A stretch of DNA of 64,000 bases, taken from NCBI GenBank assembly GCA_910588225.1, contig CAJUQT010000010.1, forward strand, positions 29,224 to 93,223, in the 5' to 3' direction. The position numbers were made by a program, and so were the translations under genes. This DNA comes from an uncultured Acetatifactor sp. (GTDB lineage: Bacteria; Bacillota; Clostridia; Lachnospirales; Lachnospiraceae). The notes under the pieces were generated by a model, which saw only the letters and a list, made by a program, of their open reading frames with translations, was not told where the DNA came from and ran no database searches. Positions 9,607 to 37,336 of the stretch are shown in pieces (position 1 is the stretch's first letter; the number at the start of each line of letters is the position of its first letter).

Positions 9607-9646
9607 ACCTCCATCGAATTATATATTATTAATACGGAATACTTTC

Positions 9647-9734
9647 ATTATTTAATTAAGAGAACTTAATATCAATCTGAAATTAAGTATTTTATCTGTA
9701 TTTTCTTGACTTAATTTACTTAATTTTTTATAAT
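9647..9734. promoter_or_regulatory. Back-to-back sigma70-type promoters for the isomerase operon and lacI, with repeated CTTAAT motifs
   Basis: Plus strand: TTGACT(9706)-N17-TATAAT(9729). Minus strand: TTGATA(9675-9670)-N17-AATAAT(9652-9647). Palindrome ATTAAG-AGAA-CTTAAT at 9655-9670. ACTTAATTT at 9709 and 9718, and inverted at 9680. Confidence 0.55.
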
Positions 9735-9917
9735 GACACTGGAATTGTGCTTTTGAATTCCAGTGTGCAGATTCTATAATCAAAATTATATTGTTGCCTT
9801 ACTATCATGCAAGGTAAGGCAACAGGAATGCATGGGGAATACTGTATAAAATATAATGTATTATCAATGAAAATGTTTTAAGCAATATATTTCAGATATA
9901 GGAATGAGGAGAAAGAT

Positions 9918-10934
9918 ATGTCTGTCACCGCCAAAGAACTGGCCAGCCTGTTGAATCTGTCCGAAGCCGCCGTATCCATGGCCCTGAACGGCAAACCTGG
10001 AGTCAGCACTGCCACACGCAAAAAAGTCGTGGAAACCGCCGAAAAATACGGCTATGATTTCAGCCGGATTACCGCAAAAGCGCCTGCGCCCCGGCCTTCT
10101 CAGGGCACTCTGTATTTCATTATCTACCGCAAGCACGGCGCGGTAGTGACCGATACTCCCTTTTTTTCTCAGCTGTCTCAGGGGATTGACTCCGGCTGCA
10201 AAAAACACCACTACTTTTTAAACGTATTTTATCTGGATGAAGGGGAAAATCCGGAACGTCAGCTCCGGGAACTGATTCATTTCGACTGTAAGGGAATTCT
10301 TCTGCTGGGCACGGAAATGCTGGAAAATGATGTGCTTCCCTTTCTGAATCTGAAACTGCCTCTGGTCATCCTGGACACCTGTTTTGAGACCATAGAGGCG
10401 GATTATGTTCTGATCAATAATGCGCAGGGTGCCTATCTGGCCACCTGCCACCTGCTTTCCCGGTGCAGAGAACAGCCCGGATACCTGCGCTCTTCCTACC
10501 CAATCAATAATTTTACGGAACGGGCGGACGGATTCTATCGGGCAGTCCGTCGAAACGGCATGTCCACCTCCAACTCAAAAGTACATTTCCTCTCCCCCTC
10601 TGCGGAAGGGGCTTATGCGGATATGACAGCGATTCTGAGTACCGGAGAGAAGCCGGCCCGCTGCTACTTCGCCGACAATGACCTGATTGCCTGCGGCGCC
10701 ATGAAGGCGCTGAAGGAAAAAGGATACCGGATTCCTCAGGATGTGTCCATTGTGGGCTTCGACAATATGCCAATGTCCGCCTATACGGAACCGGCTCTCA
10801 CCACTGTCAACGTCCCGAAAGAATACATGGGAGAGATGGCCGTCTGCCGTCTCTCCCAGCTTATCGAATCCCAGGGGAATATTCCCGTGAAATTGGAGAT
10901 TTCCACCACCCTTGTAAAGCGGAAAACCGTATAA
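9918..10934 (+). CDS. LacI-family transcriptional regulator
   Basis: N-terminal HTH (TAKELASLLNLSEAAVSMALNGKPGVS) and a sugar-binding domain with ND.IA.G and SIVGFDN. Divergent from the isomerase operon. Confidence 0.92.
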   Translation: MSVTAKELASLLNLSEAAVSMALNGKPGVSTATRKKVVETAEKYGYDFSRITAKAPAPRPSQGTLYFIIYRKHGAVVTDTPFFSQLSQGIDSGCKKHHYFLNVFYLDEGENPERQLRELIHFDCKGILLLGTEMLENDVLPFLNLKLPLVILDTCFETIEADYVLINNAQGAYLATCHLLSRCREQPGYLRSSYPINNFTERADGFYRAVRRNGMSTSNSKVHFLSPSAEGAYADMTAILSTGEKPARCYFADNDLIACGAMKALKEKGYRIPQDVSIVGFDNMPMSAYTEPALTTVNVPKEYMGEMAVCRLSQLIESQGNIPVKLEISTTLVKRKTV

Positions 10935-11049
10935 TTAGATTCCTGCGGAAACAAGCCGCACCCCGTGTCGAAAACGCCTTATTCCATTCCTGCAAATGCT
11001 GATTTTTCCGTAACAGTTCAGCGCCCTGTCCGAACTGTTACGATTTTCC

Positions 11050-13017
11050 TCAGCCCTCCAGCCTGTGCAGAACAGCCTCGAATACATTGGCCGCCGCCCA
11101 GAGATTGTAGCTGAACCAGGAATTATATGCTTCTCCGGTATCATACCGCTCCGTCACCAGCCCGTCGGAGGGACACCATCTCTCAGACAGGACACCATAC
11201 TGCCCATATCCCGTCCGGTCCGGATACAGCTCCAGCGTCTGCATCATCCAGGCAATGGAATCCAGCGCACGCTCTGTGTAATAAGCATCCCCCGTCACTT
11301 CTCCCAGGAACAGCAAATCCTCATCCGCCAGCACACCCATTGGATGAATATGGGGATTGGAAACGGACGTAACAGAACCTCCGCAGGCATTCCAGCCGGC
11401 ATTTACCGGAGGATGCTCCGGACGGGTAGGATAGCCATACCGCCACAGGAATTCATATCCCGCGCTGTACTTCATATCCTCCAGGAATTCTGCTTCTTTT
11501 GTATATTCGTACAGCATCCGACTTCCATGCAGAAAGCTTAGATTCCCCTCCTGATCCACCGCCTTCCAGGTGTCCATTGGCGCGCCATAGCAATCCAGGT
11601 TGATGACAAACTTACGATAATAAGCATGTGCCTTCCTGGCCTTATCCACATAGGAGGCATCTCCTGTCAGCTGCGCAAGATACATCAGCCCCGGCACAAA
11701 CCAGCATCCCGCAAAGCCTTCCCAGTCCAGCACCTTCCTTTCCTGCGCCGAATAAGTATAGCCGAAAGCCCCGTCCTCTCTCTGGAGAGAAACCACGGTA
11801 TCCAGCACATTTTTACAGTTGCTCAGCCATTCTTCCTTCCAGGAAATTCCTTTTTCCTTCAGGAAAGATACTGTCTTTAAAATATAATATACCGCGCTTC
11901 CCTGAGTGTAAGCACAGTGGCAGTCTCTACAGAGACCATAATAAGTCCACCATCCATTCAACCGGTCATCAGAATTCTCGTTCACCGGTGCATATAAATC
12001 ATTGAAGAAGCCTGACTCCTCCCGATAACCGGCCACAATCCTGTCCAGCATCGTTTCTCCCGACATGGCCTGAGACAACCGGCCTGCCGCAAAATCTCCC
12101 AGCAGATATCTGCTCATCACAAGAGGAAATCCAAGAATGGCCCCGCCTGTCCAGCCGATTTCCACCACATTCCTCCAGGGCTCCAGCTTTGTATTGTCAT
12201 AAGGCTGGCATTTTCTGTTGGTGTATTCTCCCGCTTCCGAATCATAGTTCAGGCAGCAGAACGTATCCAGCATGGCTTCTGCCGCCTGTCGAAAGCTTCC
12301 GGTGTACACAGGTCTCACATGAATTCTTTCATATTCCCTGCGCACAATCCTGTGAATGCCCAGCCTTCCCTCTCCTGCCACAGTATAAATCTTCCCTGCA
12401 ACGCAGGCTTCTCTCCCCCGGCTCCCGGTGGAAGCGGCAGGTACGGAACGATTCAGGAAGGTCACCGGGTCGTTGGTGTAACCCAACGTAACTCCGAAAC
12501 AGTCCGGCAATGCAGCGAAGATACCGTTTCTGATCAGACCGCCCTCCTCTTTTCCTTCTTCCTCTGAATAAGGGTCTACAGATATCGCGGCAGTTCCCCT
12601 GCCACAACAGAGCGCCGACAAAGGCACAGCCGCCCGGTCCGCCCGAAATTCCCAATAGGGCGAACAGAATGCCGCCTCGGGATGAATTTCCGTAAGCAGA
12701 GGAAATTCTCCGATACGCACCTCCTCCGCATGATTGTCCCCGTAAATATTACAGGGAATCACATGGAAATAATCCTTTTCCTCCGGCAGGGAAAGCTGCA
12801 GCTTCATTCGGGTGTCATAGGAAGCATGGTATTCCATTCGATAACTGATTTCTCCCTCCGATCCTTCTTTGTCAAAAGCCACCCGGTATTCCGCATCCTT
12901 CGTCCGAAATTCACAGCCGCCTTCCGTATAACAGGAGTCCGGCACAGGAATCCATATATCATTTTTCCCGTAAAAAATATTCACTTTTAAGTTGAATCCA
13001 TTTAACTTTAATATCAT
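11050..13017 (-). CDS. Hypothetical 655-aa protein, possibly an (alpha/alpha)6-barrel glycoside hydrolase-like enzyme
   Basis: Long ORF with host-like codon use. Helical C-terminal region with QREDGAF, LTGDASYVDKARK and VTGDAYYTERA repeats typical of six-hairpin folds. No family recognised. Confidence 0.6.
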   Translation of the reverse strand: MILKLNGFNLKVNIFYGKNDIWIPVPDSCYTEGGCEFRTKDAEYRVAFDKEGSEGEISYRMEYHASYDTRMKLQLSLPEEKDYFHVIPCNIYGDNHAEEVRIGEFPLLTEIHPEAAFCSPYWEFRADRAAVPLSALCCGRGTAAISVDPYSEEEGKEEGGLIRNGIFAALPDCFGVTLGYTNDPVTFLNRSVPAASTGSRGREACVAGKIYTVAGEGRLGIHRIVRREYERIHVRPVYTGSFRQAAEAMLDTFCCLNYDSEAGEYTNRKCQPYDNTKLEPWRNVVEIGWTGGAILGFPLVMSRYLLGDFAAGRLSQAMSGETMLDRIVAGYREESGFFNDLYAPVNENSDDRLNGWWTYYGLCRDCHCAYTQGSAVYYILKTVSFLKEKGISWKEEWLSNCKNVLDTVVSLQREDGAFGYTYSAQERKVLDWEGFAGCWFVPGLMYLAQLTGDASYVDKARKAHAYYRKFVINLDCYGAPMDTWKAVDQEGNLSFLHGSRMLYEYTKEAEFLEDMKYSAGYEFLWRYGYPTRPEHPPVNAGWNACGGSVTSVSNPHIHPMGVLADEDLLFLGEVTGDAYYTERALDSIAWMMQTLELYPDRTGYGQYGVLSERWCPSDGLVTERYDTGEAYNSWFSYNLWAAANVFEAVLHRLEG

Positions 13018-13152
13018 TTATACTACATTCCTTTCCACAATTTACAGATATAATGCCACACAGATTATTCTTTTCCATATAATGTTCCAATTACCTGTCT
13101 GAACTACTGCCTATTCGTTCCCATCCCTTACTCTCTATCAGAAAAGCAGATA

Positions 13153-15837
13153 TCAGAAAGACTTCCGATACACAATCTCCCACTCTCCGGAACCGCACTG
13201 TGCAGTGAAAATCCCCTCCTTCAAAGCAAAATCCAGCCCCTCAGTCCTGATCTCTTCGGCGCCTTTTTCCAATCTGATCTCCGCGGTGGTATTGTGTGGA
13301 ATTGTAATCTGCAGCCTGCGGACATCCTCCGCCTCCCCCTTTTCCCAGCGAACCTTCAACACACCGTACACACTCTCGTAAGAGCCCTCCGCAAAGTCGA
13401 ATGCATCTCCTGTCTGGGGACTGATAATGGAATGATGATAACCCGGGTCCTTCTCGTCGATTTCCATTCCCAGCACCACTCTGTAAAGCCAATCCCCCAC
13501 AGCGCCGTAAGCATAATGATTGAAGGAATTCATATCCGGACTCCACATGGTCCCGTCTGGCTTCATGCCGTCCCAATGCTCCCAGACAGTGGTTGCTCCC
13601 ATCTTTACCTGATAAAGCCAGGAAGGGAAATCCTCCTTCAGCAGAAGGTCATAAGCCTCCTTCACATAGCCGTTACGGCTCAGCGCATGGCAGAAATAAG
13701 GCGTTCCCACGAAACCAGTGACCAGATGGCCATTCTCCTTCTTCAGCAGCTCTGTCAGACGCCGGGCTGTCTGGGCCCTGAAAGCTTCCGGCACCAGATC
13801 AAAATACAACGCCACAATGTGAGCCGTCTGGGTCTGGGCTGTCATGGTTCCGTCCGCCTGAAAGAAGGTTCGTCTGAACTTCTCCACAATCTTGTCATGC
13901 AGGGCACCGTACCGCACCGCATCCTCCCGCCTGTCCAGAATCCCGGCAATTTTCACGAAAAGTCCTGTGGAATAGGCAAAATATGCCGTACAGGTCAAAT
14001 CGTTTGGCGTGGCGCCGAAGTAGCTTCCCTCCTCTGCATCCAGCGCCACCCAGTCCCCGAACTGCAGCCTGTAATTCCATATGTAATCTGTGGAATGCTC
14101 TTTCATGAAATCAATCCACTTCCGCATACTCTCATACTGCTCTTCCAGAATTGTCTTATCCCCGAACGTCAGATACATGGTCCAGGGATTAATCACTGCC
14201 ACATCCGCCCATGCCGCCGCGGAATGAGTCCCCTGGGACAACAGCCAGTCATTCTCTTCCTTCCCGCTGATAATGTCAGGCACCACATGAGGCACACCTC
14301 CCTCCGGCGTCTGATCCGCCGCCACATCCTTCAGCCATTTCCGGAAAAAAGTATACGTGTTCATAAGCCAGCAGGCAGTCCTGCAGAAAATCTGGGCGTC
14401 TCCCGTCCATCCCACTCTTTCGTCTCTCTGAGGGCAATCCGTGGGAATATCCAGGAAATTCCCCTTCAGACCCCAGAGAATATTCTGCTGCAGTCTGTTC
14501 ACCAGCGGATTGGAACACCGAAAGGTTCCCGTCTGCTCCATCTGGGAATAAAGTGCAAACGCCAAGAAATCTTCCGCCTTCACTTCTCCGGGCCATTGCA
14601 GAATCTGTACATACCGAAATCCCATAAAGGTAAAAAGAGGGTGATACTCTTCCGGCCCGTCCCCTTTGCAGATATAATGAATCTCCTGCTTCGCGGAACG
14701 CAGATTTGCCGTATATACATTTCCCTGTGCATCCAGTGTCTCAAAGCATTTCAGAACAATCTCACATCCCCTGTCCGCCTGCACTCGAAAATTCACCCAT
14801 CCGGTCAGGTTCTGACCGAAATCAATCACAGTTTCCCTGTTGGGTGTCACAATCACTTCCCTGGCCTGAAGCTTTTCCATTTTCCGCACCCTGCTGCCCG
14901 CCTGGGCCGTGAGCGCTTCCATCGGGAACTCAATTCTGCTTACCTTTTTCCATTTCCCTTCATCTTCCGACTCCAGTCTGGCATCATACCATTCTCCGTC
15001 GTAAATCTCCGAAAAAGTTACTGGACCGGGTCGTCCCTGCCAGCTTTCGTCCGTCACGAAAATCTCTTCCCTGCCATCCTTATACCGCACTATCATCTGC
15101 ATCAGAAAAGCTGTTCTCGTACCGTAATTGTTCCTCAATAGCAGGAATCCCATCTTTCCTTTGTACCATCCTGCTCCCAGCATGACCTCCAGAACATTTT
15201 CTCCTTCTTTCAGCAGTTCTGTCACATCACAGGTCTGGTAACATAGATGCTTATGATAAGAAGTCCAGCCAGGGGTCATTTCGTCCTCTCCCTCCTTCTC
15301 TCCATTGATAAAAAAGCGGTACAATCCCAAAGCTGTCCCACACACATAAGCCGACTCCACTTCCCCCTTCAGATAAATCCTTTTCTTCAGACAGGTACTG
15401 TTGGATTTCTCGCTGTCTGATTCTTCCTCCACGGTAATGAAACCTGCCTTCCACTGGCTCCTGTCCAGAATTCCTGTCACAAAGGAAGCAGTGTCGCTGT
15501 AAGGACTCTTCTCCACGCCATCGCTCACCCGGACTCGCACAAAATATTCCCTGCAGGATTGAATCTCGCCTGATACTTTTCCTTTTTCATTGATTCGAAT
15601 TCCCTGCCCCTCTGTCTTCTCCCATGGAATTTCCACATGAACAGATTCTTCGCTCTCCACGAAACCACTGTCATAGACGAGCCTTTCAAACTGCAAATCC
15701 TCCGCAATCTGCAGCTGATAGGACTTTTGTACCACGCTTTTCCTGTCGCTCTCCAGCACCCAGCCAAACCATGGAATCCCTCCCAGACCTGTAGGCTGTT
15801 CCACATACTCCATTCTGATTTTTATCGCTTTAAGCAT
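13153..15837 (-). CDS. Alpha-L-rhamnosidase, GH78
   Basis: DFGQNLTGW, DIPTDCPQRDERVGWTGDAQ, GATTVWEHW, MNSFNHYAYGAV. Start moved to ATG 15837 (GGGAGAG RBS). No signal peptide. Confidence 0.92.
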   Translation of the reverse strand: MLKAIKIRMEYVEQPTGLGGIPWFGWVLESDRKSVVQKSYQLQIAEDLQFERLVYDSGFVESEESVHVEIPWEKTEGQGIRINEKGKVSGEIQSCREYFVRVRVSDGVEKSPYSDTASFVTGILDRSQWKAGFITVEEESDSEKSNSTCLKKRIYLKGEVESAYVCGTALGLYRFFINGEKEGEDEMTPGWTSYHKHLCYQTCDVTELLKEGENVLEVMLGAGWYKGKMGFLLLRNNYGTRTAFLMQMIVRYKDGREEIFVTDESWQGRPGPVTFSEIYDGEWYDARLESEDEGKWKKVSRIEFPMEALTAQAGSRVRKMEKLQAREVIVTPNRETVIDFGQNLTGWVNFRVQADRGCEIVLKCFETLDAQGNVYTANLRSAKQEIHYICKGDGPEEYHPLFTFMGFRYVQILQWPGEVKAEDFLAFALYSQMEQTGTFRCSNPLVNRLQQNILWGLKGNFLDIPTDCPQRDERVGWTGDAQIFCRTACWLMNTYTFFRKWLKDVAADQTPEGGVPHVVPDIISGKEENDWLLSQGTHSAAAWADVAVINPWTMYLTFGDKTILEEQYESMRKWIDFMKEHSTDYIWNYRLQFGDWVALDAEEGSYFGATPNDLTCTAYFAYSTGLFVKIAGILDRREDAVRYGALHDKIVEKFRRTFFQADGTMTAQTQTAHIVALYFDLVPEAFRAQTARRLTELLKKENGHLVTGFVGTPYFCHALSRNGYVKEAYDLLLKEDFPSWLYQVKMGATTVWEHWDGMKPDGTMWSPDMNSFNHYAYGAVGDWLYRVVLGMEIDEKDPGYHHSIISPQTGDAFDFAEGSYESVYGVLKVRWEKGEAEDVRRLQITIPHNTTAEIRLEKGAEEIRTEGLDFALKEGIFTAQCGSGEWEIVYRKSF

Positions 15838-15864
15838 TTCACACTCTCCCTTGTATTTTCTACC

Positions 15865-15901
15865 CTTCATAAGGTCATCATATACAGATGACCTTATGAA
15901 G
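15865..15901. repeat. Perfect 15-bp inverted repeat with a 7-bp spacer
   Basis: CTTCATAAGGTCATC-ATATACA-GATGACCTTATGAAG, 28 bp upstream of the GH78 start. Confidence 0.9.
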
Positions 15902-21780: not shown

Positions 21781-22428
21781 TTATATGCTACTGTCGAAAG
21801 TGTAGGTAGATACCAGTTTCTTCATACTCATGGATACCGGATGATACAGCACCATCATCAGAACAAAATTTCCAACGGCATGGATAATATCCATCTTTAT
21901 ACCTGCCACCCACCAGACAAACCCGGTATGTAGTCCGCTCCGAAGACCACCATCCACCACACCGACCGCAGCATAGGAAATTGCACACATAAATCCAAAA
22001 AAAAGACCGAATACAGACGACAGAATACTCCAGAACCAGACAGATTCCTGTCTTCTGAACAGGTAGCTGACCAGGGCAAGCAGGGGCCATACATACAAAT
22101 AAGAAAACCACCACATACCAAACCCATAGATAAGTCCTTCTATCAGAACAAATGCAGGAATGGCAAAAAAGATTTTCTTATGAAAAAAAAAAGTAAACAA
22201 AATAATCCAGAAGCTGACTAATTCAATATTGGGCAAAAAACTCAAAGCTGCTTTACATACTTCCAAAATAGCCACTATCAGTCCGATCAGCGTCATATCC
22301 CTGATTGTCAGCTTTCCGTATTTTCCCTGCTTTTTTACTTGAATCTCCGGTCTTTTTCCATTTCTTTTCTCCGGGATATTTTGGATTGCCTGCTCACTTT
22401 GTCCTCTCACTCTTTCATACTCTGTCAT
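21781..22428 (-). CDS. ECF-type S component, CbrT-like cobalamin uptake membrane protein
   Basis: About 6 TM segments and an LPNIELVS motif like CbrT. Lies downstream of a cobalamin riboswitch. Confidence 0.65.
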   Translation of the reverse strand: MTEYERVRGQSEQAIQNIPEKRNGKRPEIQVKKQGKYGKLTIRDMTLIGLIVAILEVCKAALSFLPNIELVSFWIILFTFFFHKKIFFAIPAFVLIEGLIYGFGMWWFSYLYVWPLLALVSYLFRRQESVWFWSILSSVFGLFFGFMCAISYAAVGVVDGGLRSGLHTGFVWWVAGIKMDIIHAVGNFVLMMVLYHPVSMSMKKLVSTYTFDSSI

Positions 22429-22556: not shown

Positions 22557-22976
22557 CTACTCGCCTATTGTATAGACAATAGAGAATACATCTCCATCTT
22601 CTACCGGCTGAGTGTCAATACCATAATTGCAATACTCACCATTCACAAAAAATCCCCAGTATGCTCCGTCCACATTATAATCAGCCGTCTCATCATTCAC
22701 AGTTTCCACCATCATGCCATACTCACTCTCTGCACCGGAAAAAGTAAGTCCTTCTGCTTCTTCCATCGCCTGCCTGAGATATTCTGCATCTGTCTTCAAT
22801 TCGTAGCTTGTCTTTTCCTCCGCCCTATTTACCACTTCAATGGTAATGGATTTAGAACCTTCCACAGGTTTCTCCCGAAATACATTGTAAACAATGACAA
22901 ACAGACCAATCAACACCACCAGACCTATAATTCCAATTACAATTTTCCTGTTTCCGTTACCGCTTTTACTGTTCAT
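22557..22976 (-). CDS. Membrane-anchored DUF4430 (transcobalamin C-terminal-like) protein
   Basis: N-terminal TM segment, then a YGMMVETVN...GAYWGFFVNG...GID..PVEDGD pattern. ATG 22976 with GGAGGAG RBS; the ORF-track start at 23060 is unlikely. Confidence 0.75.
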   Translation of the reverse strand: MNSKSGNGNRKIVIGIIGLVVLIGLFVIVYNVFREKPVEGSKSITIEVVNRAEEKTSYELKTDAEYLRQAMEEAEGLTFSGAESEYGMMVETVNDETADYNVDGAYWGFFVNGEYCNYGIDTQPVEDGDVFSIVYTIGE

Positions 22977-23084
22977 CTTTCTCCTCCTTTGCAGTTTCCT
23001 GCTGCCCTGTAAATTTTCATTCGTGCATCTTTTTCGCTTATTATGCGCCCATGCATACACTGTTCACTATGAAAATCTGCGCAT

Positions 23085-23518: not shown

Positions 23519-24622
23519 TCATCTAATAACTTTCACCAGCTCCAGATTCTTATCCATCAGAATCACATCCGCCTGCTTTCCGGGAGTCAGAGAACCAACC
23601 CTGTCATAAATCCCGATGCTTCTGGCAGGATTTATGGTAGCGGCGGCGATTGCCTCTTCCATAGGAATGCCGAAGGACACAGCAGTTCGCATACAGTCAT
23701 ACAAATTTGTGGCGGAACCGGCAATGGTTCCGTCAGAAAGTGTGGCAAGCTTTCCATTCACTGTCACCTGCTGCCCGCCCAGATCATAAGTGCCGTCTTC
23801 CATTCCGGCAGCACGCATGGAATCGCTGATAAGAACGATTCTTCCTGGGAACAGCTTAAAAGCTGCCCTCACCATGCTCTCATGCACGTGGATACCGTCG
23901 CAGATCAGTTCCGCCATACAGTTCTCATCTTCCGCCGCGGCTCCTATAAGCCCTGGTGCTCTATGTCCTAAAGGCATCATAGCATTGAAGAGATGAGTCA
24001 CATGGTTTGCTCCCGCTTCCAGAGCCGCTTTTGCCGTATCGTAATCTGCTCCTGTATGTCCCAGAGAAATTGATACCTCATTGTGAAGCTCTCTGATAAA
24101 TTCCATAGCGCCTTCCACATCCGGCGCCAGAGTAACCAGACAAATATGTTTTCCGCAGGCCTGATTACATCGCCGAAAAAAGTTTACATCCGGCGCCATA
24201 ATATTCTCTTGTTTATGAGCACCTTTTTTAGAAACATCCAGAAAGGGACCCTCCATATTAATTCCAGCTACATGTGCCATGCCGTGACCTTCCCGGAAAT
24301 TTCCCATCCGTTCAAAAAGGTTCTCAAGTTCCTTTCTGTCAATGGTCATGGAGGTAGGACAGTAGGAAGTAATTCCATGGGCATATTCATAGATAAGTAT
24401 TTCCTCCAGACCTTTCGGATTGCCATCTGAAAAATCATGTCCCACCGCCCCATGGCTGTGTATGTCAATCAGGCCTGGAAGAACCAGCAGATCTGAAGCA
24501 TTTATCTCAGAATGGTCTGTTACCTGCTCAGCGTTTTCCACAATAATTCCTTTTTCTATATATAAGTCTCTTTTTACAAAAACTTTGTTATCCTGAAAGA
24601 CATTGCCATTTTTAATAATCAC
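23519..24622 (-). CDS. nagA: N-acetylglucosamine-6-phosphate deacetylase
   Basis: PGLIDIHSHG, EGPF, GAH, TLAPD, GH...A, THLFNAM, DGIHV, SDSM, IAGS. Confidence 0.95.
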   Translation of the reverse strand: MIIKNGNVFQDNKVFVKRDLYIEKGIIVENAEQVTDHSEINASDLLVLPGLIDIHSHGAVGHDFSDGNPKGLEEILIYEYAHGITSYCPTSMTIDRKELENLFERMGNFREGHGMAHVAGINMEGPFLDVSKKGAHKQENIMAPDVNFFRRCNQACGKHICLVTLAPDVEGAMEFIRELHNEVSISLGHTGADYDTAKAALEAGANHVTHLFNAMMPLGHRAPGLIGAAAEDENCMAELICDGIHVHESMVRAAFKLFPGRIVLISDSMRAAGMEDGTYDLGGQQVTVNGKLATLSDGTIAGSATNLYDCMRTAVSFGIPMEEAIAAATINPARSIGIYDRVGSLTPGKQADVILMDKNLELVKVIR

Positions 24623-24738: not shown

Positions 24739-25500
24739 TTAATTATAAATCACCTGTTCACTGTAGCCCCTTTTACGTATCATGCTCATAGCCGCCTCAT
24801 CTGCAATTACCACTGTATCCGGATGGAGCTGCAGTATAGACGCAGGCACACCAGGTATCACAGGTCCAAAACAGGAGTCATAAAGAGCCTGAGCTTTTGC
24901 CTCTCCTGAAGCCAGAAGCAGAATTTTTTTCGCAGACATGATATTCCCGATTCCCATTGTCAGAGCCTGAGTAGGAACTTCCTCTATGGAAGCAAAGAAT
25001 CTGGAATTACTCTCTTTCGTTTCCTCTGTCAACTTCACCACATGAGTCCCTTTCTCAAATACATCACAGGGCTCATTAAAGCCGATATGTCCATTGCCTC
25101 CAATACCAAGGAGCTGCAGGTCAATTCCTCCCAGATCCCGGATAAGCTGATTATAACGCCGGCATTCTGTTTCCGCATCTTCGGCCAGGCCGTCAGGCAC
25201 ATTAGTCCTTTCCTTATCAATGTTCACATGATCAAACAAATTATAATTCATAAAATAACGATAGCTCTGATCATGTTCACCGGAAAGTCCTTTATATTCA
25301 TCCAGATTCACACTGGAAGCCTTGGAAAAGTCCAGATCTCCTTTTTCGTACCATTCAACCAGCTGTTTATAAGCCCCTACGGGAGTAGATCCTGTAGCCA
25401 GTCCCAATACAGCCTCCGGTTTCAGAATAAGCTGCGCGGAAATCATATTTGCCGCTTTACGGCTCATTTCATTATAATCTTTTACTGCATAAATTACCAT
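24739..25500 (-). CDS. nagB: Glucosamine-6-phosphate deaminase
   Basis: GLATGSTP, NLDEY, QLLGIGGNGHIGFNEP, ALTMGIG. Confidence 0.95.
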   Translation of the reverse strand: MVIYAVKDYNEMSRKAANMISAQLILKPEAVLGLATGSTPVGAYKQLVEWYEKGDLDFSKASSVNLDEYKGLSGEHDQSYRYFMNYNLFDHVNIDKERTNVPDGLAEDAETECRRYNQLIRDLGGIDLQLLGIGGNGHIGFNEPCDVFEKGTHVVKLTEETKESNSRFFASIEEVPTQALTMGIGNIMSAKKILLLASGEAKAQALYDSCFGPVIPGVPASILQLHPDTVVIADEAAMSMIRKRGYSEQVIYN

Positions 25501-25617: not shown

Positions 25618-28425
25618 TTATGAATTCAAATTCATCAGGATTTTCAACAGTGTATCCGCCAGTCCAACATTATAACCTGCACTGCTGTAGAGGCATTTTT
25701 TCTCATGATTTAAAACCAGAGCAAGGGGCAGACTTCCCTTCTCTTCTCCCACCTCTTCTGCCATAACTTCTGCATTTTTATCAGAATCATCTATAAAGAG
25801 ATTAAGTGCCGGCAGTACTTTTATTGTCCGTTGAAGTGTAGCATTATTCAAATCTTCCGAAGTCTTTAATATCACATAGATCGAATTCTTTAACTTGGCA
25901 AATTCCCTTCTTTTGTCATAAAGCTCATTTAAAATGTGTTCTGTAGGTTCTCTTCCTGTCTCAATCCAAAGAAAAAGTATACTGTCCTTTTCAAGCAACT
26001 CTGACAATTTCCTGACTTTTCCTTTTAATGTCTTCAGGAGAAAATCTTTTACCTGAATTTTCGCTGCTCCGTCTTCTTCCGGTAACTTTCCAAAAGAAAG
26101 TGTCTCTATCCTGCTTTCTCCTTCATTCATGGAAAATACAGTCTTTTTTACTATCTGATCACCGTTTTTCCTCCTGTCTGATGTCAGGATTCGATAGATT
26201 CCCGGTCTCAATATCAATTCCAGTTCTCTGCCCTGTATCCTGTCTGATATCTGATGAGGCCACAGACACAGGAAACTTCCTTCTTCAAATCGTTCCAGAG
26301 AATAATGCTCCCAGTCGAACAGCTTCGGACGATGCTCCATTGAATCATCTTCACATAATATAAGTCTGCATTTTCTATTATCCGCCAAATATTCCGCTGA
26401 TGTAAAATCTTCTCCATCATAATACTCTACAGTACCATCAAATAGATTCAGTCTGGCCGGAATCCCCAGACTGCGATAGAGATTGACACATAATACTTTT
26501 TTTGAATGTCTGCTGCCAATTCCTCCTTTCAGACAATTAAGAGAAGAAGTAATCAAATCCTCATATTGCTCCTCCGGCAGAGACTGGATTTCTTCATCTA
26601 CTGCTTTCCAGAGAATCGCCGGACATTTCCGAATTTCTTCTTCCGCATCTTTGCTCAGATACAGGGAAAGCATTGTCCGACAAGGCCTGAGCATTTCATC
26701 CGACACTCGCGGTGACAAAAGGAATGGGAAAAAGATATCTTCCGGCAGATTTTCTGCATACGGAAAAGCATTTATGCAACAATCTTTCAATATATCTGCA
26801 TCTATATCCCAATAATCCTTCTCTCTCAGCGTATTCAGAACTTTCAGCTTCCATTCATGCCTATCTCCCCTTTTCCAGACAGGCGGCAGATAACTCTCCG
26901 CATCCCACTCCAGAAAACGCACAATCTCTCTCATATTCCCTCTGGCACTGCGCAGTATTTCCTCTGCCTGCATTCTGTTCTGGTCTCCAAAAAGCAACAG
27001 AACCTCGGAAGTTTTTGCCTCTGAATAAAAGCCCTTTTCTTTCTGATTACGATGCAATGTCATTCTGTCCAACCGCTGTTTTCCCAAATCCGTTTTACTC
27101 CGGACCCATTTACATTCCTGACAATCTGAGCATTCAGGCTTTACATTTTCAAAACTTAAATCTTTTTTTATATCCTCCTTATCCCTGGAAAAATTTTTAT
27201 ATTCTGCCTGTGGCGCATGAAAAACAAATTCCATCCATCCTTTCGTACATTCCGGAAAAGACTTCATCACAACAACGAATTCTGCATCTTGCTTATCTTT
27301 TATGCAGTGCAGAGGAATCAGTTTCTCTCCGTACAGCCATTCCTTACCTCTATCCGATTCCCTGCAAATTCCGGCACTGACCTGCAGATCACCATATCCT
27401 GTAACCAATCTGGCAATTCCGTAATTTTCTGGTTCGTATCCTGTCCATACTTCTGCTATTGTACCAAATGTTCCCTGATTCAACACCTGAAATTCCACTC
27501 TTGTCCCAGGGAGCAGATTTCCTTCTTCATCCACTGTTTTTACTGACAGAGTCAGCGTACGGGCATATCGTGACAAATGATTCAGAACTTTGATTGTACC
27601 CTTTTTTCCTACCTGTTCTTCCTCAGGCTCATGAATATCAAACCATCTGGAATGAACCATCATTGCCCTGGAAGAAGCCTCCAGAAACCATCCTGTATTC
27701 AATTGCATCTCCGGCTCACAAGCTCCCAGAAAATACCAATGTCCATCACACCATATTTCCACCCATGCATGATTATCATCACAATGAGACCACAGCGGCG
27801 CATATACCTGGCGGGCAGGAATCCCCATGCTTCGCAAAGCTGTCACAGTCAATGTAGATTCTTCTCCACAACGACCAATAGCGGCATTATACATAGTACG
27901 GGGATTCTGGGTCCGATTATCCGTGGAACGGTATGTGGCTTCTCCTGCACACCAGTAATTAATATCTACCGCCGCATTATAAAGGGAATCTGTACGTACA
28001 TAACCTGTCTCCTGAATCCTGTCATGGAAGAATCTTCTGGTCTCCGTAATGTCTTCATTATTAATTCTATAGTGCAGTACATAGTCAGCAAAAATATGTT
28101 CCGGTATACGACCTGCAAAAGGACCATTCTGCCATAAATATACACCATGCTTTGCATAATCCAGAAAAAGTGATACTGAATAATCCAGCATATCACTGAC
28201 AGGCATAGCGCTGTACAGAAATGTAAGGGCCTGCCTTTCCTCCTCTGTACAGTCCGCTATGACATCCTGAATCTCCTTTTTCTTCTCTCCCAGGAAATTA
28301 TCTGTTCCGTCACACAACATTTTCTGTTTCACACTTCTGATATTCCCATAGGCACATTTCTCCGGCAATTCCATCCTACGCTTAAATTCTGTTCTGATTT
28401 CGTCATAATATTTTGTAGAGAACAC
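25618..28425 (-). CDS. Transglutaminase-fold protein (one core with Cys and His retained plus one degenerate core), PNGase-like motifs
   Basis: GRCGEES...ALRSMGIPAR...DNHAWVE...WYFLGACEP, and a second degenerate repeat LYRSLGIPARL. No signal peptide. Confidence 0.8.
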   Translation of the reverse strand: MFSTKYYDEIRTEFKRRMELPEKCAYGNIRSVKQKMLCDGTDNFLGEKKKEIQDVIADCTEEERQALTFLYSAMPVSDMLDYSVSLFLDYAKHGVYLWQNGPFAGRIPEHIFADYVLHYRINNEDITETRRFFHDRIQETGYVRTDSLYNAAVDINYWCAGEATYRSTDNRTQNPRTMYNAAIGRCGEESTLTVTALRSMGIPARQVYAPLWSHCDDNHAWVEIWCDGHWYFLGACEPEMQLNTGWFLEASSRAMMVHSRWFDIHEPEEEQVGKKGTIKVLNHLSRYARTLTLSVKTVDEEGNLLPGTRVEFQVLNQGTFGTIAEVWTGYEPENYGIARLVTGYGDLQVSAGICRESDRGKEWLYGEKLIPLHCIKDKQDAEFVVVMKSFPECTKGWMEFVFHAPQAEYKNFSRDKEDIKKDLSFENVKPECSDCQECKWVRSKTDLGKQRLDRMTLHRNQKEKGFYSEAKTSEVLLLFGDQNRMQAEEILRSARGNMREIVRFLEWDAESYLPPVWKRGDRHEWKLKVLNTLREKDYWDIDADILKDCCINAFPYAENLPEDIFFPFLLSPRVSDEMLRPCRTMLSLYLSKDAEEEIRKCPAILWKAVDEEIQSLPEEQYEDLITSSLNCLKGGIGSRHSKKVLCVNLYRSLGIPARLNLFDGTVEYYDGEDFTSAEYLADNRKCRLILCEDDSMEHRPKLFDWEHYSLERFEEGSFLCLWPHQISDRIQGRELELILRPGIYRILTSDRRKNGDQIVKKTVFSMNEGESRIETLSFGKLPEEDGAAKIQVKDFLLKTLKGKVRKLSELLEKDSILFLWIETGREPTEHILNELYDKRREFAKLKNSIYVILKTSEDLNNATLQRTIKVLPALNLFIDDSDKNAEVMAEEVGEEKGSLPLALVLNHEKKCLYSSAGYNVGLADTLLKILMNLNS

Positions 28426-28485: not shown

Positions 28486-31590
<3,105 letters not shown>

Positions 31591-33880: not shown

Positions 33881-35758
33881 ATGGACAAAATGAGAATGGA
33901 GTCAGTGGATATTTTTCAGCAGAATATAAATAAACTTGAGACGCTTTTTCCAGAATGCATTACTGAGTGCATAGGAAAAGACGGTAAAATGACAAAAACT
34001 GTAAATATTGAACGATTCAGACAGCTTTTTACCGATGAATTGCAGGGAAGAAATGAAGTCTATGAGTTCACCTGGGTTGGAAAAAAAGCAGCCATTGCTG
34101 AAGCCTGCAAACCTGTTCGAAAGACACTGCGTCCATGTCCCGACGAAAGTGTAGACTGGAATACTACTGAAAATATCTATATTGAGGGAGACAATCTGGA
34201 TGTATTAAAACTTCTTCAGGAAAGCTATCTTGAAAAAGTGAAAATGATTTATATTGATCCGCCTTACAATACAGGCAATGATTTTATTTATCAGGACAAT
34301 TTTACTCAAAATGCAGATAAATACAATGCACTGACAGAAAAATTTGACGAACAGAATCGTTCTCTCTTCAAAAATACGGATTACAACGGACGATTTCATT
34401 CAGACTGGTGCAGCATGATTTATTCCCGGCTGATGCTGGCAAGAAATCTGCTGACAAAGGATGGTGTCATTTTTATCAGCATTGATGATCATGAAGCAGC
34501 AGCCCTGCGTCTTATCTGTGATGAAATATTCGGAGAGCGCAATTTTATAGCTCAGATTGTATGGGAAAAAGTTCACACCCGGAAAAATTCTTCCATTAAT
34601 TTTTCCGGTTCTCATGAATATATTCTGTGTTATGCCAAGAAAAAGAGAGAAAATGCCGGAGACGAAGACGGATTTCGAATTCATCTGCTGCCCAGAGAAA
34701 ATACGGATGCTTACGCCAATCCTGACAATGATCCAAAGGGTCCCTGGAAAGCAGACCCCATAACTGCTCATAATTATTATAGTGCGGATTATCAGATTAC
34801 CAAACCGGATGGTACGATTATCAGAAGGCCGAAGGACAGATACTGGGCTTTCAGTGAAGAGACCTGGAACCGGCTTGTCAGTGAAAATGCAGTCATCTGG
34901 GGAAACGGAGATTCCATGCCTATGATGAAGCGCTATCTCTGTGACGTAAATGACGGTCTTGTTCCAACTACGTTATTCACAAGAAAATTTGCCGGGGATA
35001 CTTCCACAGCCAAGAAAAATATGGATGTTCTCTTTGATGTCAACGGACTGTTTGACTATACAAAGCCGGTAAAGCTTTTATACAGGCTGCTGCAGATTTC
35101 CACAGCGGAAAATGATATAGTTCTGGATTTCTTCTCCGGTTCCGGAACTACTGCTCAGGCAGTTATGGAATATAATTTCCGAAGCAACGGACATCGAAAA
35201 TTTATTATGGTCCAAATTCCGGAAAAGCCCTCTGAGAATTCCATCGCTTTTCAGACAGGATATGTATCTATCTGTGAGTTGGGAAAGGAACGTATCCGCC
35301 GTGCCGGATCGAGATTGAAAAAAGAATATTGCAATACTGTTCAGGATCAGGATACAGGTTTTCGGGTTTTTAAACTGGCTGACAGCAATATGAATGATAT
35401 TTATTACAGTGCAGATGAATATAACCAGAATCTTTTATCTCTTATGGAATCCAATATTAAAGCAGACCGAAATGATCTTGATCTGATATTTGGCTGCCTT
35501 CTGGAATGGGGACTGCCTCTTTCCATGCCTCTGCGCAGTGAAATATGGGGAAATTCCCATATTCATATTTACAATGATGGAGATATGATAGCCTGTTTTG
35601 ATGAGGATATACCAGAAAGCATCATTACCGAAATAGCTGAAAATAAGCCTGGACAGGTTGTATTTCGGGATATGAGTTTTTTATCCAGTCCTATTAAAAT
35701 AAATGTAACGGAAATTTTCAGAATAATTTCACCTGAAACAAAAATCAAAATTATTTAA
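33881..35758 (+). CDS. mod: Site-specific adenine DNA methyltransferase, type III Mod-like, with no res gene adjacent
   Basis: IEGDNL, YIDPPYNTG (motif IV), FISIDD.E, VLDFFSGSGTTAQAV (motif I) and a Mod-type N-terminus and C-terminus. Confidence 0.88.
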   Translation: MDKMRMESVDIFQQNINKLETLFPECITECIGKDGKMTKTVNIERFRQLFTDELQGRNEVYEFTWVGKKAAIAEACKPVRKTLRPCPDESVDWNTTENIYIEGDNLDVLKLLQESYLEKVKMIYIDPPYNTGNDFIYQDNFTQNADKYNALTEKFDEQNRSLFKNTDYNGRFHSDWCSMIYSRLMLARNLLTKDGVIFISIDDHEAAALRLICDEIFGERNFIAQIVWEKVHTRKNSSINFSGSHEYILCYAKKKRENAGDEDGFRIHLLPRENTDAYANPDNDPKGPWKADPITAHNYYSADYQITKPDGTIIRRPKDRYWAFSEETWNRLVSENAVIWGNGDSMPMMKRYLCDVNDGLVPTTLFTRKFAGDTSTAKKNMDVLFDVNGLFDYTKPVKLLYRLLQISTAENDIVLDFFSGSGTTAQAVMEYNFRSNGHRKFIMVQIPEKPSENSIAFQTGYVSICELGKERIRRAGSRLKKEYCNTVQDQDTGFRVFKLADSNMNDIYYSADEYNQNLLSLMESNIKADRNDLDLIFGCLLEWGLPLSMPLRSEIWGNSHIHIYNDGDMIACFDEDIPESIITEIAENKPGQVVFRDMSFLSSPIKINVTEIFRIISPETKIKII

Positions 35759-35857
35759 ATAAATATAAGGTATTTCATATAGTTTTACAAATAAACATAG
35801 ACTTTCTTTACTGTTTTGTGATATGATAAAAAAAATATACACGAAAGGTAAAATATT

Positions 35858-37336
35858 ATGATTTCTGATAAATTATACTCAATGGCATTTAAATTCAAAA
35901 AGAAAAAAGTCTGGGATATCATATTGAATGTACATGTTTTTGCAGTAAAATTTTCTGATGGCAATACAGGTTATGTTAACATTACCAAGTCTGTAAACGG
36001 ACGCTGTTGTCTTACCATTTATCTGGGGGATAAAGGTTTCAATTGCCTCCGAAGCATGGCAGAACTGGATAAAATACTGACAACCCCCTTTTCCCCCTTT
36101 AAATTTCAGGAAGCCCTTATTCAGCAGGAATGTATCAAATGTCTCTTCGTCAGTAAAAGTCAGCTGACGGAAGAAGAACAGGAAGGCATTAAAAGTTATA
36201 CTTCCTCTCATGAAATACGACTTTCCGGAAAAAATACATATCCTCAGTTTATTAAATATACAACTAATTGCATACCAATCACATTTTTGACAGAGAAGGA
36301 ACAGGAATACCTCTGTGAAGCTTTTTCGGCTTCTATGGCACTGTCGGATATTCTTATACGTGACATGAATTATACTCTGGGAATGACACAGATTTATGAT
36401 GATCCGGATACTATTGTTTCTCTGGAACTGAAAGGTGGAAAATATGTAACAGAAGAAATACCTGTACCTGAAAGAATTTCTCCAACTTATCCCTCCCCAA
36501 AAGCTGCCAATGATATCGCTGTTGCCAAATTGAAGAAACAAAAAAAAGTCGGCATATGGGAATGTGAAATTATCCGTTTTCCTCAACCTGTTCAAAATAG
36601 TCCGGAAGAAATCCCCAATTACCCTGTTGTTTTAATTGCAATAGAAAGTACTACTGATTATTTTCTCTCCATATCGCCGGTATCTCATTATGAAGAAAAT
36701 CCTGATAAACTGATTGATAATTTTATAGATTCTTTTCTGCAGCACGAATTTTGTCCCAAAGAAATTAAAGTACGTGATGAACGTACTTATGCCTTTGCGG
36801 AAGATATATGTAAGAAATTAAAGATTACTCTCAGTTTTGAAGAAGAATTAAAAGTTCTGGATGAGGCAGAACTTACATTCTGGGATCGGTTTGGGATAAC
36901 AGAACAGGAGAAGCCACAGGAAGATAAAGTAACTCCCATTCCTGTGAGACAATCCTATCTTATCAGTGTTTCCCTCGGTTCCGGCTGCTACCGTCATATT
37001 CAGATTTCCGGCAACAGTAAATTATCGGATCTACATACATCTATATTGAATGCATTTGAATTAAAAGAAGAAGACCATGAACATGGATTTTTTATGGACA
37101 ACAAAATATGGAGCAACGAAAACTGTTATCTTGCAAATCCTCCCTATCCTGAATTTCCTTCTACTTATGATTACAGATTAAGTCAAATTGAATTATCTAA
37201 AGGAAAACAGTTTAAATATCTTTTTGATTTTACAAATGAATGGAAATTTCAATGTAAAATACTTCAAGTCATGGAAACCGATACCAAAAAACCTATGGTC
37301 GTAAAAAGTAAAGGAAATGCTCCTTTATCCAAATAA
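35858..37336 (+). CDS. Multidomain protein with a C-terminal plasmid pRiA4b ORF3-like (MM3350) domain
   Basis: C-terminal YRHIQI....LSDLH.SILNAF......H...F...KQFKYLFDF..EW.F pattern. The N-terminal ~350 aa is of unknown function. AT-rich. Confidence 0.7.
   Translation: MISDKLYSMAFKFKKKKVWDIILNVHVFAVKFSDGNTGYVNITKSVNGRCCLTIYLGDKGFNCLRSMAELDKILTTPFSPFKFQEALIQQECIKCLFVSKSQLTEEEQEGIKSYTSSHEIRLSGKNTYPQFIKYTTNCIPITFLTEKEQEYLCEAFSASMALSDILIRDMNYTLGMTQIYDDPDTIVSLELKGGKYVTEEIPVPERISPTYPSPKAANDIAVAKLKKQKKVGIWECEIIRFPQPVQNSPEEIPNYPVVLIAIESTTDYFLSISPVSHYEENPDKLIDNFIDSFLQHEFCPKEIKVRDERTYAFAEDICKKLKITLSFEEELKVLDEAELTFWDRFGITEQEKPQEDKVTPIPVRQSYLISVSLGSGCYRHIQISGNSKLSDLHTSILNAFELKEEDHEHGFFMDNKIWSNENCYLANPPYPEFPSTYDYRLSQIELSKGKQFKYLFDFTNEWKFQCKILQVMETDTKKPMVVKSKGNAPLSK

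Follow-up and report, generated by a model that had tools for sequence, protein, structure and literature searches.

For gut and soil bacteria, only a few ways of removing the Asn-linked stub from N-glycoproteins are known: secreted PNGases of the F, A and H types and, in L. casei, an Ntn glycosylasparaginase. In lysosomes, the order of action is fucosidase, then AGA, then GH18 chitobiase. A 2023 review of bacterial N-glycan enzymes covers only PNGase F, A and H+ types, and no transglutaminase-fold enzyme (PMC10154615). These bacterial PNGases are secreted or periplasmic and have folds unrelated to the transglutaminase-fold family analyzed here, although they catalyze, on N-glycoproteins or N-glycopeptides, the same reaction that we propose for it. 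Ntn-type glycosylasparaginases (human AGA and L. casei AsnA2) are (Fuc-)GlcNAc-Asn amidases; their operon setting, with genes for a GH29 fucosidase, an importer and a peptidase alongside, matches the role predicted for the family, but their fold is unrelated and their mechanism relies on an Ntn Thr nucleophile instead of a Cys-His pair. In the alf-2 operon of L. casei, the glycosylasparaginase is accompanied by a GH29 fucosidase, a kinase, a peptidase and a Fuc-GlcNAc-Asn transporter (PMC6960285); the loci described below follow the same logic, with a transglutaminase-fold protein predicted to fill the amidase slot.

Eukaryotic PNGase (Png1, mouse and human NGLY1; PDB 1x3w and 2f4m) shares with the bacterial family the transglutaminase fold, in which the Cys stands at the start of a helix and the strand that comes next carries the His. 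It has a triad Asp where every bacterial member has Gly, and it carries a zinc-binding CxxC domain (PMC12248763, PMC9102325) as well as PUB, PAW and Rad23-binding parts that the bacterial family lacks. Its role is quality control, whereas the role proposed for the bacterial proteins is catabolic. By this proposal, both act in the compartment to which the glycoconjugate is delivered, upstream of a chitobiose-cleaving enzyme, which is ENGase for eukaryotic PNGase and, if the predicted role is correct, GH18 for the bacterial family.

The window, a 64-kb stretch of DNA from a mouse-gut Lachnospiraceae bacterium, contains the gene at 25618..28425 on the minus strand. It encodes 935 amino acids from a GTG start, and comparison with homologues shows that this start fits the family consensus MFSxEYYxEI. 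Pfam Transglut_core (PF01841) matches aa 146-232 with 77.4 bits against a cut-off of 23 bits (E = 1.3e-21); the Pfam search returned no other domain above cut-off, and NCBIfam assigned no family to the protein. Promoter and terminator scans gave nothing beyond shuffled expectation. The putatively active core (aa 146-262; 27640..27990) holds three motifs: GRCGEE (27859-27876), with the predicted nucleophile Cys186 (27868-27870); DNHAWVE (27757..27777), with the predicted general base His219 (27769-27771); and WYFLGACE (27715..27738), with Gly234 (27724-27726) and Glu237 (27715-27717), the latter two motifs together covering 27715-27777. In the AF2 model, Cys186 precedes helix 188-199 and His219 precedes strand 221-226, reproducing the Cys-at-helix-N-terminus and His-on-next-strand arrangement of the transglutaminase-like superfamily (papain-like clan).

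We then considered which residues of the core are conserved. No variation occurs at Cys186, His219, R205, W221, E223, W230 or E237 across 76-77 aligned members from Firmicutes, Bacteroidota and Verrucomicrobiota at 27-100% identity, with Glu237 present in 76/76. HMMER alignment to mouse PNGase (2f4m) pairs Cys186 with Cys306, His219 with His333, and Gly234 with Asp350, the residue equivalent to Asp235 in yeast. Because Gly234 occupies the triad-Asp position in 76/76 aligned diverse members, it is a family trait, not a lesion. An invariant H214-C-D216-D-N218 loop leads into His219 and has low model confidence (pLDDT <50). A 4-6 residue insertion (W-x-H-C-D-D-N) ahead of His distinguishes the family from eukaryotic PNGase. 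That a Cys-His site of this fold can be active without the canonical Asp is known from the vasohibins, transglutaminase-like proteases that act as tubulin carboxypeptidases in eukaryotes and have no relation to the family in sequence or context. Later vasohibin structures place a backbone carbonyl at the third catalytic position. The vasohibin triad is cited as Cys-His-Ser in PMC10318531.

By profile comparison, eukaryotic PNGase appears to be the nearest characterized relative of the family, by a modest margin. PNGase 2f4m is the best solved-structure sequence match for the full protein (E = 0.012), and when the family core was aligned by hhalign with a profile of 25 PNGase core sequences, the probability was 97.4% (E = 1.3e-11; 28% identity over 79 columns). 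In a like-for-like hhalign comparison, the mouse PNGase fragment scored 58.5 (E = 1.1e-9) versus 39.3 (E = 5.6e-6) for the next-best structure, 3isr. PNGase and the family have in common R-x-x-N-P, GRCGE, H-x-W-x-E and W-x(3)-[D/G]-A-C-E; the PNGase-type core motifs GRCGE, ACE and R..NP extend the likeness past the catalytic residues and are invariant within the bacterial family. Identity is just ~28-31% over 65-79 residues, and the 935-aa protein is not a PNGase family member, because it has neither the triad Asp nor the zinc-binding CxxC domain nor PUB/PAW domains: Pfam found no PUB, PAW or Rad23-binding domain in the protein, aa 1-185 contain no CxxC, and the mouse CDAC motif aligns to WCAGE.

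Other methods rank the relatives differently. In HMMER profile-to-sequence searches, 3isr (E = 1.6e-4) is level with or above PNGase (E = 3.6e-4). Modeled by AF2 as a separate domain from an alignment of 10 sequences, aa 40-292 reached a pLDDT of 64.8, with the catalytic region below 50; Foldseek with this low-confidence model placed 3isr first and also matched TG2/3, FXIII and 3kd4, none at E <= 0.001, and PNGase was absent from the best 50 matches. This search confirms the superfamily and cannot rank PNGase. 3isr (Cytophaga hutchinsonii) and 3kd4 (Parabacteroides distasonis) are transglutaminase-like putative cysteine proteases that share PF01841 with the family. Unlike the family, proteins of the 3isr type retain the canonical Asp (at the Gly234 position in 3isr), lack the GRCGE and ACE motifs, have a different architecture and have no known link to glycan operons. 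The first-pass annotation had described an open reading frame with these three motifs, a transglutaminase fold, a local resemblance to PNGase, a Gly in place of the triad Asp and a degenerate second core, and all of these hold; the comparison that it suggested against Png1/NGLY1 came out divided, with hhalign favoring PNGase and Foldseek of the low-confidence model favoring 3isr.

Outside the core, the architecture is entirely unlike that of PNGase, combining a helical N-domain with Ig-like domains, a second core that is dead and a thioredoxin-like domain. The full-length AF2 model (pLDDT 85.5) shows an N-terminal all-helical domain (aa 1-145; 27991..28425) with no Pfam match and no CxxC zinc motifs, beta-sandwich (Ig-like) domains (aa 270-402; 27220..27618), a disordered linker (aa 410-440), a second helical domain (aa 436-612; 26590..27120) and a second beta-sandwich (aa 705-780; 26086..26313). 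The Ig-like region is homologous to PDB 3e8v (E = 1.1e-10), which covers part of a 'possible transglutaminase-family protein' from Bacteroides fragilis. Between the second helical domain and the second beta-sandwich lies a transglutaminase-like core (aa 615-700; 26326..26583), recognized by BLASTP alignment of aa 576-732 to the first core (E = 2e-4) and a weak Pfam Transglut_core match (E = 0.045). Arg639 and Thr665 stand at its Cys and His positions, both of which vary across the family, and conservation is limited to R651 and G654-I-P-A-R658; this core is a dead duplicate. The C-terminal domain (aa 795-935; 25621..26043) has a thioredoxin/peroxiredoxin fold in the AF2 model, with Foldseek matches to ResA, TlpA, Bcp and AhpE (E = 3e-5 to 3e-4; TM to target 0.6-0.7) and a Pfam AhpC-TSA match (E = 0.006) under its cut-off. 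It contains no redox cysteines, neither CxxC nor a peroxidatic Cys, and has R-E-P-T-E-H at that site; within the EPTEH motif (25936-25950), E826, P827 and H830 are invariant in 77/77 members. Among the best 50 PDB matches of the full-length model, Foldseek recovered this domain and the 3e8v Ig-like fragment only, so that search bears on those parts and not on the core.

The strongest support for a sugar-asparagine amidase comes from the gene neighborhoods, which we counted over 80 genomes or loci carrying family members. At least one of the partners named below is present at 57/80 loci, and an informative partner is missing at 23/80. A GH18 exo-N-acetylglucosaminidase, a close relative of the solved GH18 'N-acetylglucosaminidase' 6inx (E = 9e-129), occurs at 22 of the 80 loci at a median distance of 25 bp on the same strand, and CutC occurs at 23 (median 24 bp, same strand); the two were never found at one locus together. 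This linkage, inside transporter and glycosidase operons, recurs in several phyla and several clades of the family. GH29 fucosidase (24/80), M17 aminopeptidase (17/80) and ABC importers of the sugar or Opp type (52/80) are also frequent, and GH20, GH130, GH123, GH33 with NanA, and GH2 beta-mannosidase are found among further partners. Together, the GH18/CutC, GH29, M17, ABC importer, GH130 and GH20 partners point specifically to the N-glycan core or to glycopeptides. Given the GH29, GH130, beta-mannosidase and sialidase partners, a peptidoglycan (muropeptide) recycling context is rejected and a chitin-only context, suggested by the resemblance of the GH18 partner to chitooligosaccharide exo-GlcNAcases, is less likely. 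The recurrent neighbor clusters of the 80 loci include no amidase candidate, and none of their ORFs carries Ntn-glycosylasparaginase motifs. No Asparaginase_2 match was obtained in the 80 loci or, by Pfam and NCBIfam, in the 935-aa protein; these operons are thus without another enzyme for the GlcNAc-Asn bond.

Based on the conserved residues and these neighborhoods, we infer a substrate, a scissile bond and catalytic roles for the residues. The 935-aa protein is a strong candidate for a new kind of bacterial sugar-asparagine amidase. We read it as a large Cys-His hydrolase of several domains, belonging to the transglutaminase/papain-like superfamily, which as a post-import amidase would cut the GlcNAc-Asn bond of N-glycan core glycopeptides; taken as a whole, we hold this reading at slightly less than an even chance. 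The activity would be that of PNGase or glycosylasparaginase, and the amide linking Asn to the innermost GlcNAc would most likely be hydrolyzed after import. Cys186, at the helix N-terminus, would attack the side-chain amide carbonyl of the glycosylated Asn, and His219 would serve as general base; because the usual Asp is replaced by the invariant Gly234, His219 would have to be oriented by a backbone carbonyl or by a nearby invariant acid (Glu237, Asp216 or Asp217). The reaction would leave free Asp, or a peptide that contains Asp, together with a glycosylamine, which would decay to the reducing sugar and ammonia. GH29 would take off the core fucose, the GH18 exo-N-acetylglucosaminidase, or CutC in its place, would handle the chitobiose/GlcNAc end, M17 would trim the peptide, and GH2, GH20, GH130 and beta-mannosidase would strip the outer sugars. 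The predicted role of the family in its operons would thereby mirror the lysosomal fucosidase-AGA-GH18 chitobiase order.

An unlikely but better-surviving alternative is a glycopeptide-directed cysteine peptidase, an endo- or carboxypeptidase that cuts peptide bonds beside the glycosylated Asn and complements the M17 aminopeptidase, leaving the GlcNAc-Asn bond to an unlinked enzyme or uncut. Most bacterial transglutaminase-like proteins are predicted proteases, the putative cysteine protease 3isr matches as well as PNGase in HMMER and better in Foldseek of the low-confidence model, and co-occurrence with M17 and Opp-type peptide importers would fit a peptidase equally well. However, hhalign favors the PNGase core, the PNGase-specific motifs are invariant, the operons would be left with no enzyme for the GlcNAc-Asn bond, and neither a peptidase nor a peptide transporter is present at many loci, among them those of the Paenibacillus type (GH29-CBM9-like-TG-GH18). 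We consider it improbable that the protein performs other amide or acyl chemistry, whether N-deacetylation of GlcNAc or chitobiose, acyl transfer like that of the related arylamine N-acetyltransferases, or Gln/Asn deamidation in peptides: the fold also supports acetyl transfer and deamidation according to a survey of the papain-like superfamily (PMC10318531), the GH18 partner is of the chitooligosaccharide exo-GlcNAcase type and nagA and nagB adjoin the gene in the window, but the presence of GH29, GH130, beta-mannosidase, sialidase and M17 as partners speaks for N-glycans and not chitin, nagA where present already supplies deacetylation, and the searches revealed no specific resemblance in sequence to NAT or deamidase families. 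A non-catabolic scaffold, sensor or protein-modifying transglutaminase/protease, indirectly linked to glycan operons, would suit the large multidomain layout, with its dead duplicate core and non-redox thioredoxin-like domain, and the loci with no informative partner, but is likewise improbable given the strict invariance of Cys186 and His219 and the position of the gene beside GH18 or CutC, with a same-strand spacing of 24-25 bp, in transporter/glycosidase operons of several phyla and clades.

The family comprises >1,000 clusters at 50% identity, and a literature search found no paper on it or on a bacterial transglutaminase-fold PNGase. If the amidase assignment is true, it would fill a gap for Lachnospiraceae, Oscillospiraceae, Paenibacillus and Bacteroidales, offer glycoproteomics and glycan release a new class of enzyme, show that PNGase chemistry works without the canonical Asp, and give evolutionary context for NGLY1. 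The neighborhoods are also a concrete lead on CutC, a protein family without established function. More broadly, and with greater reserve, the protein could be the founding member of a large family of transglutaminase-fold glyco-asparagine amidases that use a Cys-His pair and in which Gly obligatorily takes the place of the triad Asp. Such enzymes would define a post-import N-glycan-core route (amidase, then chitobiose cleavage by GH18 or CutC, plus GH29) with parallels in the cytosolic PNGase-ENGase pathway of eukaryotes and in the lysosomal fucosidase-AGA-chitobiase pathway. Eukaryotic PNGase could then be a sister of the bacterial family or even derive from it, and CutC would gain its first real function.

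The 935-aa protein has neither a signal peptide nor a hydrophobic segment, supporting a cytoplasmic location. Firmicutes members likewise have no signal peptide, whereas Bacteroidales members carry signal or lipoprotein peptides and are therefore placed, by prediction, in the periplasm, so that member location appears to follow the imported glycans. The cytoplasmic, gut-bacterial class proposed in the first-pass annotation is thus supported in location for the protein of the window but not for the family, and too narrow in habitat, as Paenibacillus, Caldicoprobacter and Udaeobacter also have members. Its expectation that homologues lie near glycan genes was borne out by a strong association; the nagB/nagA/GH2 arrangement on which it had relied, however, is a minority one, with nagA/nagB as partners at 6/80 loci and GH2 at 2/80.

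The neighbors in the window are as it had described, and all lie on the minus strand. Upstream, 60 bp from the gene, lies a LacZ-type GH2 beta-galactosidase without a signal peptide (28486..31578); nagB, encoding glucosamine-6-phosphate deaminase (24739..25500; TIGR00502, 282 bits), follows 117 bp downstream, and then nagA, encoding GlcNAc-6-phosphate deacetylase (23519..24622; TIGR00221, 297 bits), which is the last gene of the unit because a cobalamin riboswitch comes next. NagA and NagB would feed freed GlcNAc into glycolysis. These three genes are the only partners within the 64-kb window, in which a search for GH18, CutC, GH29, M17, GH20, GH130, GH123, GH33, CBM9-like, NanA and DUF5696 homologues returned none. 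Mouse-gut metatranscriptome contigs span both gene junctions, with flat and low coverage that may include DNA, and the GH2-TG-nagB-nagA order is retained in a relative at 80% identity.

The transglutaminase-fold protein under study (TG) is encoded on the reverse strand at 25618-28425 (935 aa, GTG start), and its N-terminus fits the family consensus MFSxEYYxEI, indicating that the start is correctly placed. Translation located GRCGEE at 27859-27876 (-) and DNHAWVEIWCDGHWYFLGACE at 27715-27777 (-), and a single Pfam domain was detected, Transglut_core (PF01841, residues 146-232, E 1.3e-21), so that the ORF and the GRCGEE and His/ACE motifs described in the first-pass annotation are real; no NCBIfam model covers the protein. 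Annotation also confirmed its neighbours, all on the same strand: a LacZ-type GH2 beta-galactosidase (28486-31578), nagB (24739-25500) and nagA (23519-24622). The latter is the final gene of the unit, as a cobalamin riboswitch (RF00174, 23196-23412 (-), 97.6 bits) opens a separate one downstream; the riboswitch precedes genes for a DUF4430 protein (22557-23060) and a 215-aa membrane protein (21781-22428), which probably form a B12-regulated uptake unit distinct from the nag genes. Mouse-gut metagenome contigs carry an identical protein and the nearest genome relatives are Acetatifactor/Lachnospiraceae MAGs, placing the source as a mouse-gut Lachnospiraceae bacterium. The order lysK-GH2-TG-nagB-nagA is conserved in a relative at 80% identity. 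In one mouse-gut metatranscriptome, contigs span the TG gene and both of its junctions (GH2 and nagB) at low and flat coverage, so the evidence for co-transcription is only weak.

To profile the genomic setting of the family, ORFs were called in 80 genome loci (up to 10 kb of either flank; L001-L080) and clustered, and cluster representatives were annotated with Pfam. The recurrent partners were sugar-ABC permeases (34/80 and 33/80 loci), GH29 alpha-L-fucosidase (24/80), CutC-family proteins (23/80; same strand, median 24 bp from TG), a cytoplasmic 350-aa GH18 (22/80; median 25 bp), SBP_bac_1 (22/80), Opp-type ATPases (21/80), a 355-aa CBM9-like protein (19/80), M17 leucyl aminopeptidase (17/80) and regulators, with GH20, GH130, GH123, sialidase with a NanA-like lyase, GH2 beta-mannosidase, ROK kinase and an aspartate-aminotransferase-like protein at fewer loci. 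Three layouts recur: SBP-permease-permease-GH29-CBM9-like-TG-GH18 (Paenibacillus and others), SBP-permeases-CutC-TG-GH29-M17 (Lachnospiraceae) and Opp(ABCDF)-M17-CutC-TG (Oscillospiraceae), while the clade of the window protein has GH2-x-GH20-GH18-TG-GH29 and GH130-TG-GH123...LacI-nagB-nagA-sialidase-NanA. The earlier argument from nagB, nagA and GH2 held in that homologues lie near glycan genes, but those particular neighbours are weak family-wide (nagA or nagB, 6/80; LacZ-type GH2, 2/80), and the counts over 80 loci make a much stronger case. None of the typical partners was found in the 64-kb window around TG, making this locus a reduced version of the family neighbourhood. Two further proteins recur: the cytoplasmic CBM9-like protein (weak match; L010:12883-13950 and 18 other loci), which accompanies GH18-type operons, is related to no solved structure and may be a further, uncharacterised pathway enzyme, and a 392-aa protein without a Pfam match, which the GH2-x-GH20-GH18-TG-GH29 operons (L003:5686-6864 and L004) keep between GH2 and GH20.

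Together, the partners are the set needed to take apart an N-glycan core still attached to peptide. GH130 is a family of Man-beta1,4-GlcNAc phosphorylases, and GH130 or beta-mannosidase would cleave Man-beta1,4-GlcNAc; GH29 would remove core fucose, GH18 would cleave chitobiose or GlcNAc, GH2, GH20 and sialidase would deal with outer sugars, M17 would trim the peptide, and sugar- or peptide-type ABC systems would provide import. The GlcNAc-Asn bond would then be the sole bond lacking an assigned enzyme among the operon partners, a slot that TG may fill: the recurrent neighbours at the 80 loci include no amidase candidate, and Ntn-glycosylasparaginase motifs are absent from all their ORFs. To our knowledge, no cytoplasmic route for this bond other than the alf-2 operon of L. 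casei has been established experimentally in bacteria. In that operon (PMC6960285), the Ntn glycosylasparaginase AsnA2 is encoded together with a GH29 fucosidase, a peptidase, a kinase and a permease, and the family loci follow the same logic, with a transglutaminase-fold protein instead of AsnA2 in the amidase slot. Given this setting and the PNGase-like core described below, a post-import glyco-asparagine amidase is the best explanation for TG, albeit one we hold at somewhat under even odds; the earlier proposal of an amidase releasing GlcNAc-containing glycans from Asn or peptides pointed in the right direction and is partly supported. Of the alternatives, the main rival, a glycopeptide peptidase, is unlikely in our estimate; some other reaction at an amide or acyl group of amino sugars and a non-catalytic or indirect role are both improbable.

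To compare the active site with that of peptide:N-glycanase (PNGase), we aligned 77 members, taken from 80 genomes and sharing 27-100% identity with the window protein; they represent Lachnospiraceae, Oscillospiraceae, Paenibacillus, Caldicoprobacter, Bacteroidales and Udaeobacter. Invariant positions were R171, T172, G184-R-C186-G-E-E189, R198, R205, P210, W212, H214, D216, N218, H219-A-W-V-E223, W230, G234 and E237. In HMMER alignments, Cys186, His219 and Gly234 meet the triad positions of mouse and yeast PNGase (Cys306, His333 and Asp350 in mouse; PMC12248763), bearing out the replacement of the triad Asp by Gly, which is fixed across the family. Mouse PNGase was the top PDB sequence match for the full protein, although weak (E 0.012). 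A search with an N-terminal-region profile gave it a score much like that of 3isr, a Cytophaga transglutaminase-like putative protease (3.6e-4 and 1.6e-4, respectively). Like-for-like profile-profile scores were 58.5 for the mouse PNGase fragment and 39.3 for the 3isr fragment, and the family core matched a PNGase core profile built from 25 eukaryotic sequences with 97.4% probability (E 1.3e-11, 28% identity, 79 columns). Foldseek gave no ranking of PNGase because the domain-only model was poor. On this mixed evidence, PNGase appears to stand closest to the family among characterised proteins, though its lead is modest.

The likeness extends beyond the catalytic residues to R..NP, GRCGE and ACE, whereas eukaryotic PNGase has a triad Asp, a zinc-binding CxxC domain and accessory domains that are all missing here. 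Lacking these three defining features, the family is not a member of the PNGase family and at best would work like PNGase; the resemblance noted earlier holds at the level of local motifs and profile match. Since Gly is invariant alongside Cys and His, finding it in place of the Asp is no argument against the predicted activity. The Asp may be replaced functionally by a backbone carbonyl, by Glu237 or by Asp216/217 on a poorly modelled loop; a non-canonical third position is known in the transglutaminase fold from vasohibins, as cited in PMC10318531.

A confident full-length AF2 model (pLDDT 85.5, pTM 0.85) comprises a helical N-domain (aa 1-145), the transglutaminase core (146-262), Ig-like beta-sandwiches (270-402), a disordered linker, a second helical domain (436-612), a second transglutaminase-like core (615-700), a second beta-sandwich (705-780) and a C-terminal thioredoxin-fold domain (795-935). 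The protein thus carries helical domain, core and sandwich twice, through internal duplication, with the thioredoxin-like domain after them. The second degenerate core seen previously is real: the two cores align with each other (BLASTP E 2e-4), and Arg639 and Thr665 occupy the Cys and His positions, both variable across the family, so that the second core is a dead copy. The C-terminal domain resembles thioredoxin or peroxiredoxin folds of the ResA, TlpA and Bcp types (Foldseek E ~3e-5), and its redox position holds no cysteine; E-P-T-E-H (aa 826-830; 25936-25950 (-)) stands where redox cysteines normally sit, with E826, P827 and H830 invariant in 77/77 members, and may be a second functional site. 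No relative has been solved at full length; the Ig-like domain has a homologue in PDB 3e8v (E 1.1e-10), a fragment solved by structural genomics from a 'possible transglutaminase-family protein' of Bacteroides fragilis.

Among the partners, GH18 adjoins TG at 22 loci (L001-L004, L010, L024, L030, L034, L041, L043, L044, L046, L048, L051, L059, L060, L064, L065, L068, L072, L074, L077) and CutC at 23 (L008, L012, L017, L019, L020, L022, L025, L028, L031-L033, L035-L037, L042, L047, L049, L050, L052, L055, L071, L075, L079), with no locus of the 80 carrying both (hypergeometric P 1.3e-4, uncorrected for phylogeny). Both operon types are scattered over several family clades, which together suggests interchangeable roles in N-glycan-core catabolism. 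The GH18 partner is closely related over its full length to 6inx, a solved GH18 annotated 'N-acetylglucosaminidase' (E 9e-129), and is therefore predicted to be chitobiase-like and to act in exo fashion, not as an endoglycosidase. We know of no established function for the CutC family, the 'copper homeostasis' TIM barrel (PF03932). In Xanthomonas, cutC adjoining the nix N-glycan cluster was noted independently (PMC6718126).

A word-based search returned more than 7,900 family clusters at 90% identity, and an exhaustive search (E <= 1e-30) returned 1,072 representatives at 50% identity, nearly all of 800-1000 aa. Source databases name the family only 'transglutaminase domain-containing protein' or 'hypothetical'. 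The proposed cytoplasmic location fits Firmicutes members, which lack signal peptides, but not six Bacteroidales members (L058, L070, L071, L076, L079, L080) with N-terminal signal or lipoprotein-like peptides, predicted to be periplasmic or surface-located; TG would thus sit where imported glycans are processed. Two paralogues, in different operon types, occur in several genomes, namely L013/L016 (Robinsoniella peoriensis), L001/L027 and, on shared contigs, the member proteins P0042/P0067, P0040/P0082 and P0023/P0098, which suggests differing substrate specificities in a single organism. Full-text literature searches turned up no publication on the family. In a 2023 review of the bacterial enzymes that act on N-glycans (PMC10154615), the F, A and H+ types are the only PNGases listed, and the survey of papain-like proteins includes PNGase from eukaryotes only (PMC10318531). 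TG combines a known fold, and probably known chemistry, with an architecture, active-site configuration and biological setting that are new.

Elsewhere in the window, an N6/N4 DNA methyltransferase followed by a DUF7309/DUF6930/PRiA4_ORF3 protein (33881-37336 (+)) is flanked by class-I lysyl-tRNA synthetase and gyrA, with no endonuclease identified. A sugar-catabolic locus at 1055-15870 encodes a GH78 alpha-L-rhamnosidase, an apiosidase-like (GH140-type) enzyme, a fucose-isomerase-like protein, a split transketolase, FGGY and PfkB kinases, an MFS transporter and a LacI regulator, and looks like a cluster for utilisation of plant pectic side chains (rhamnose/apiose).
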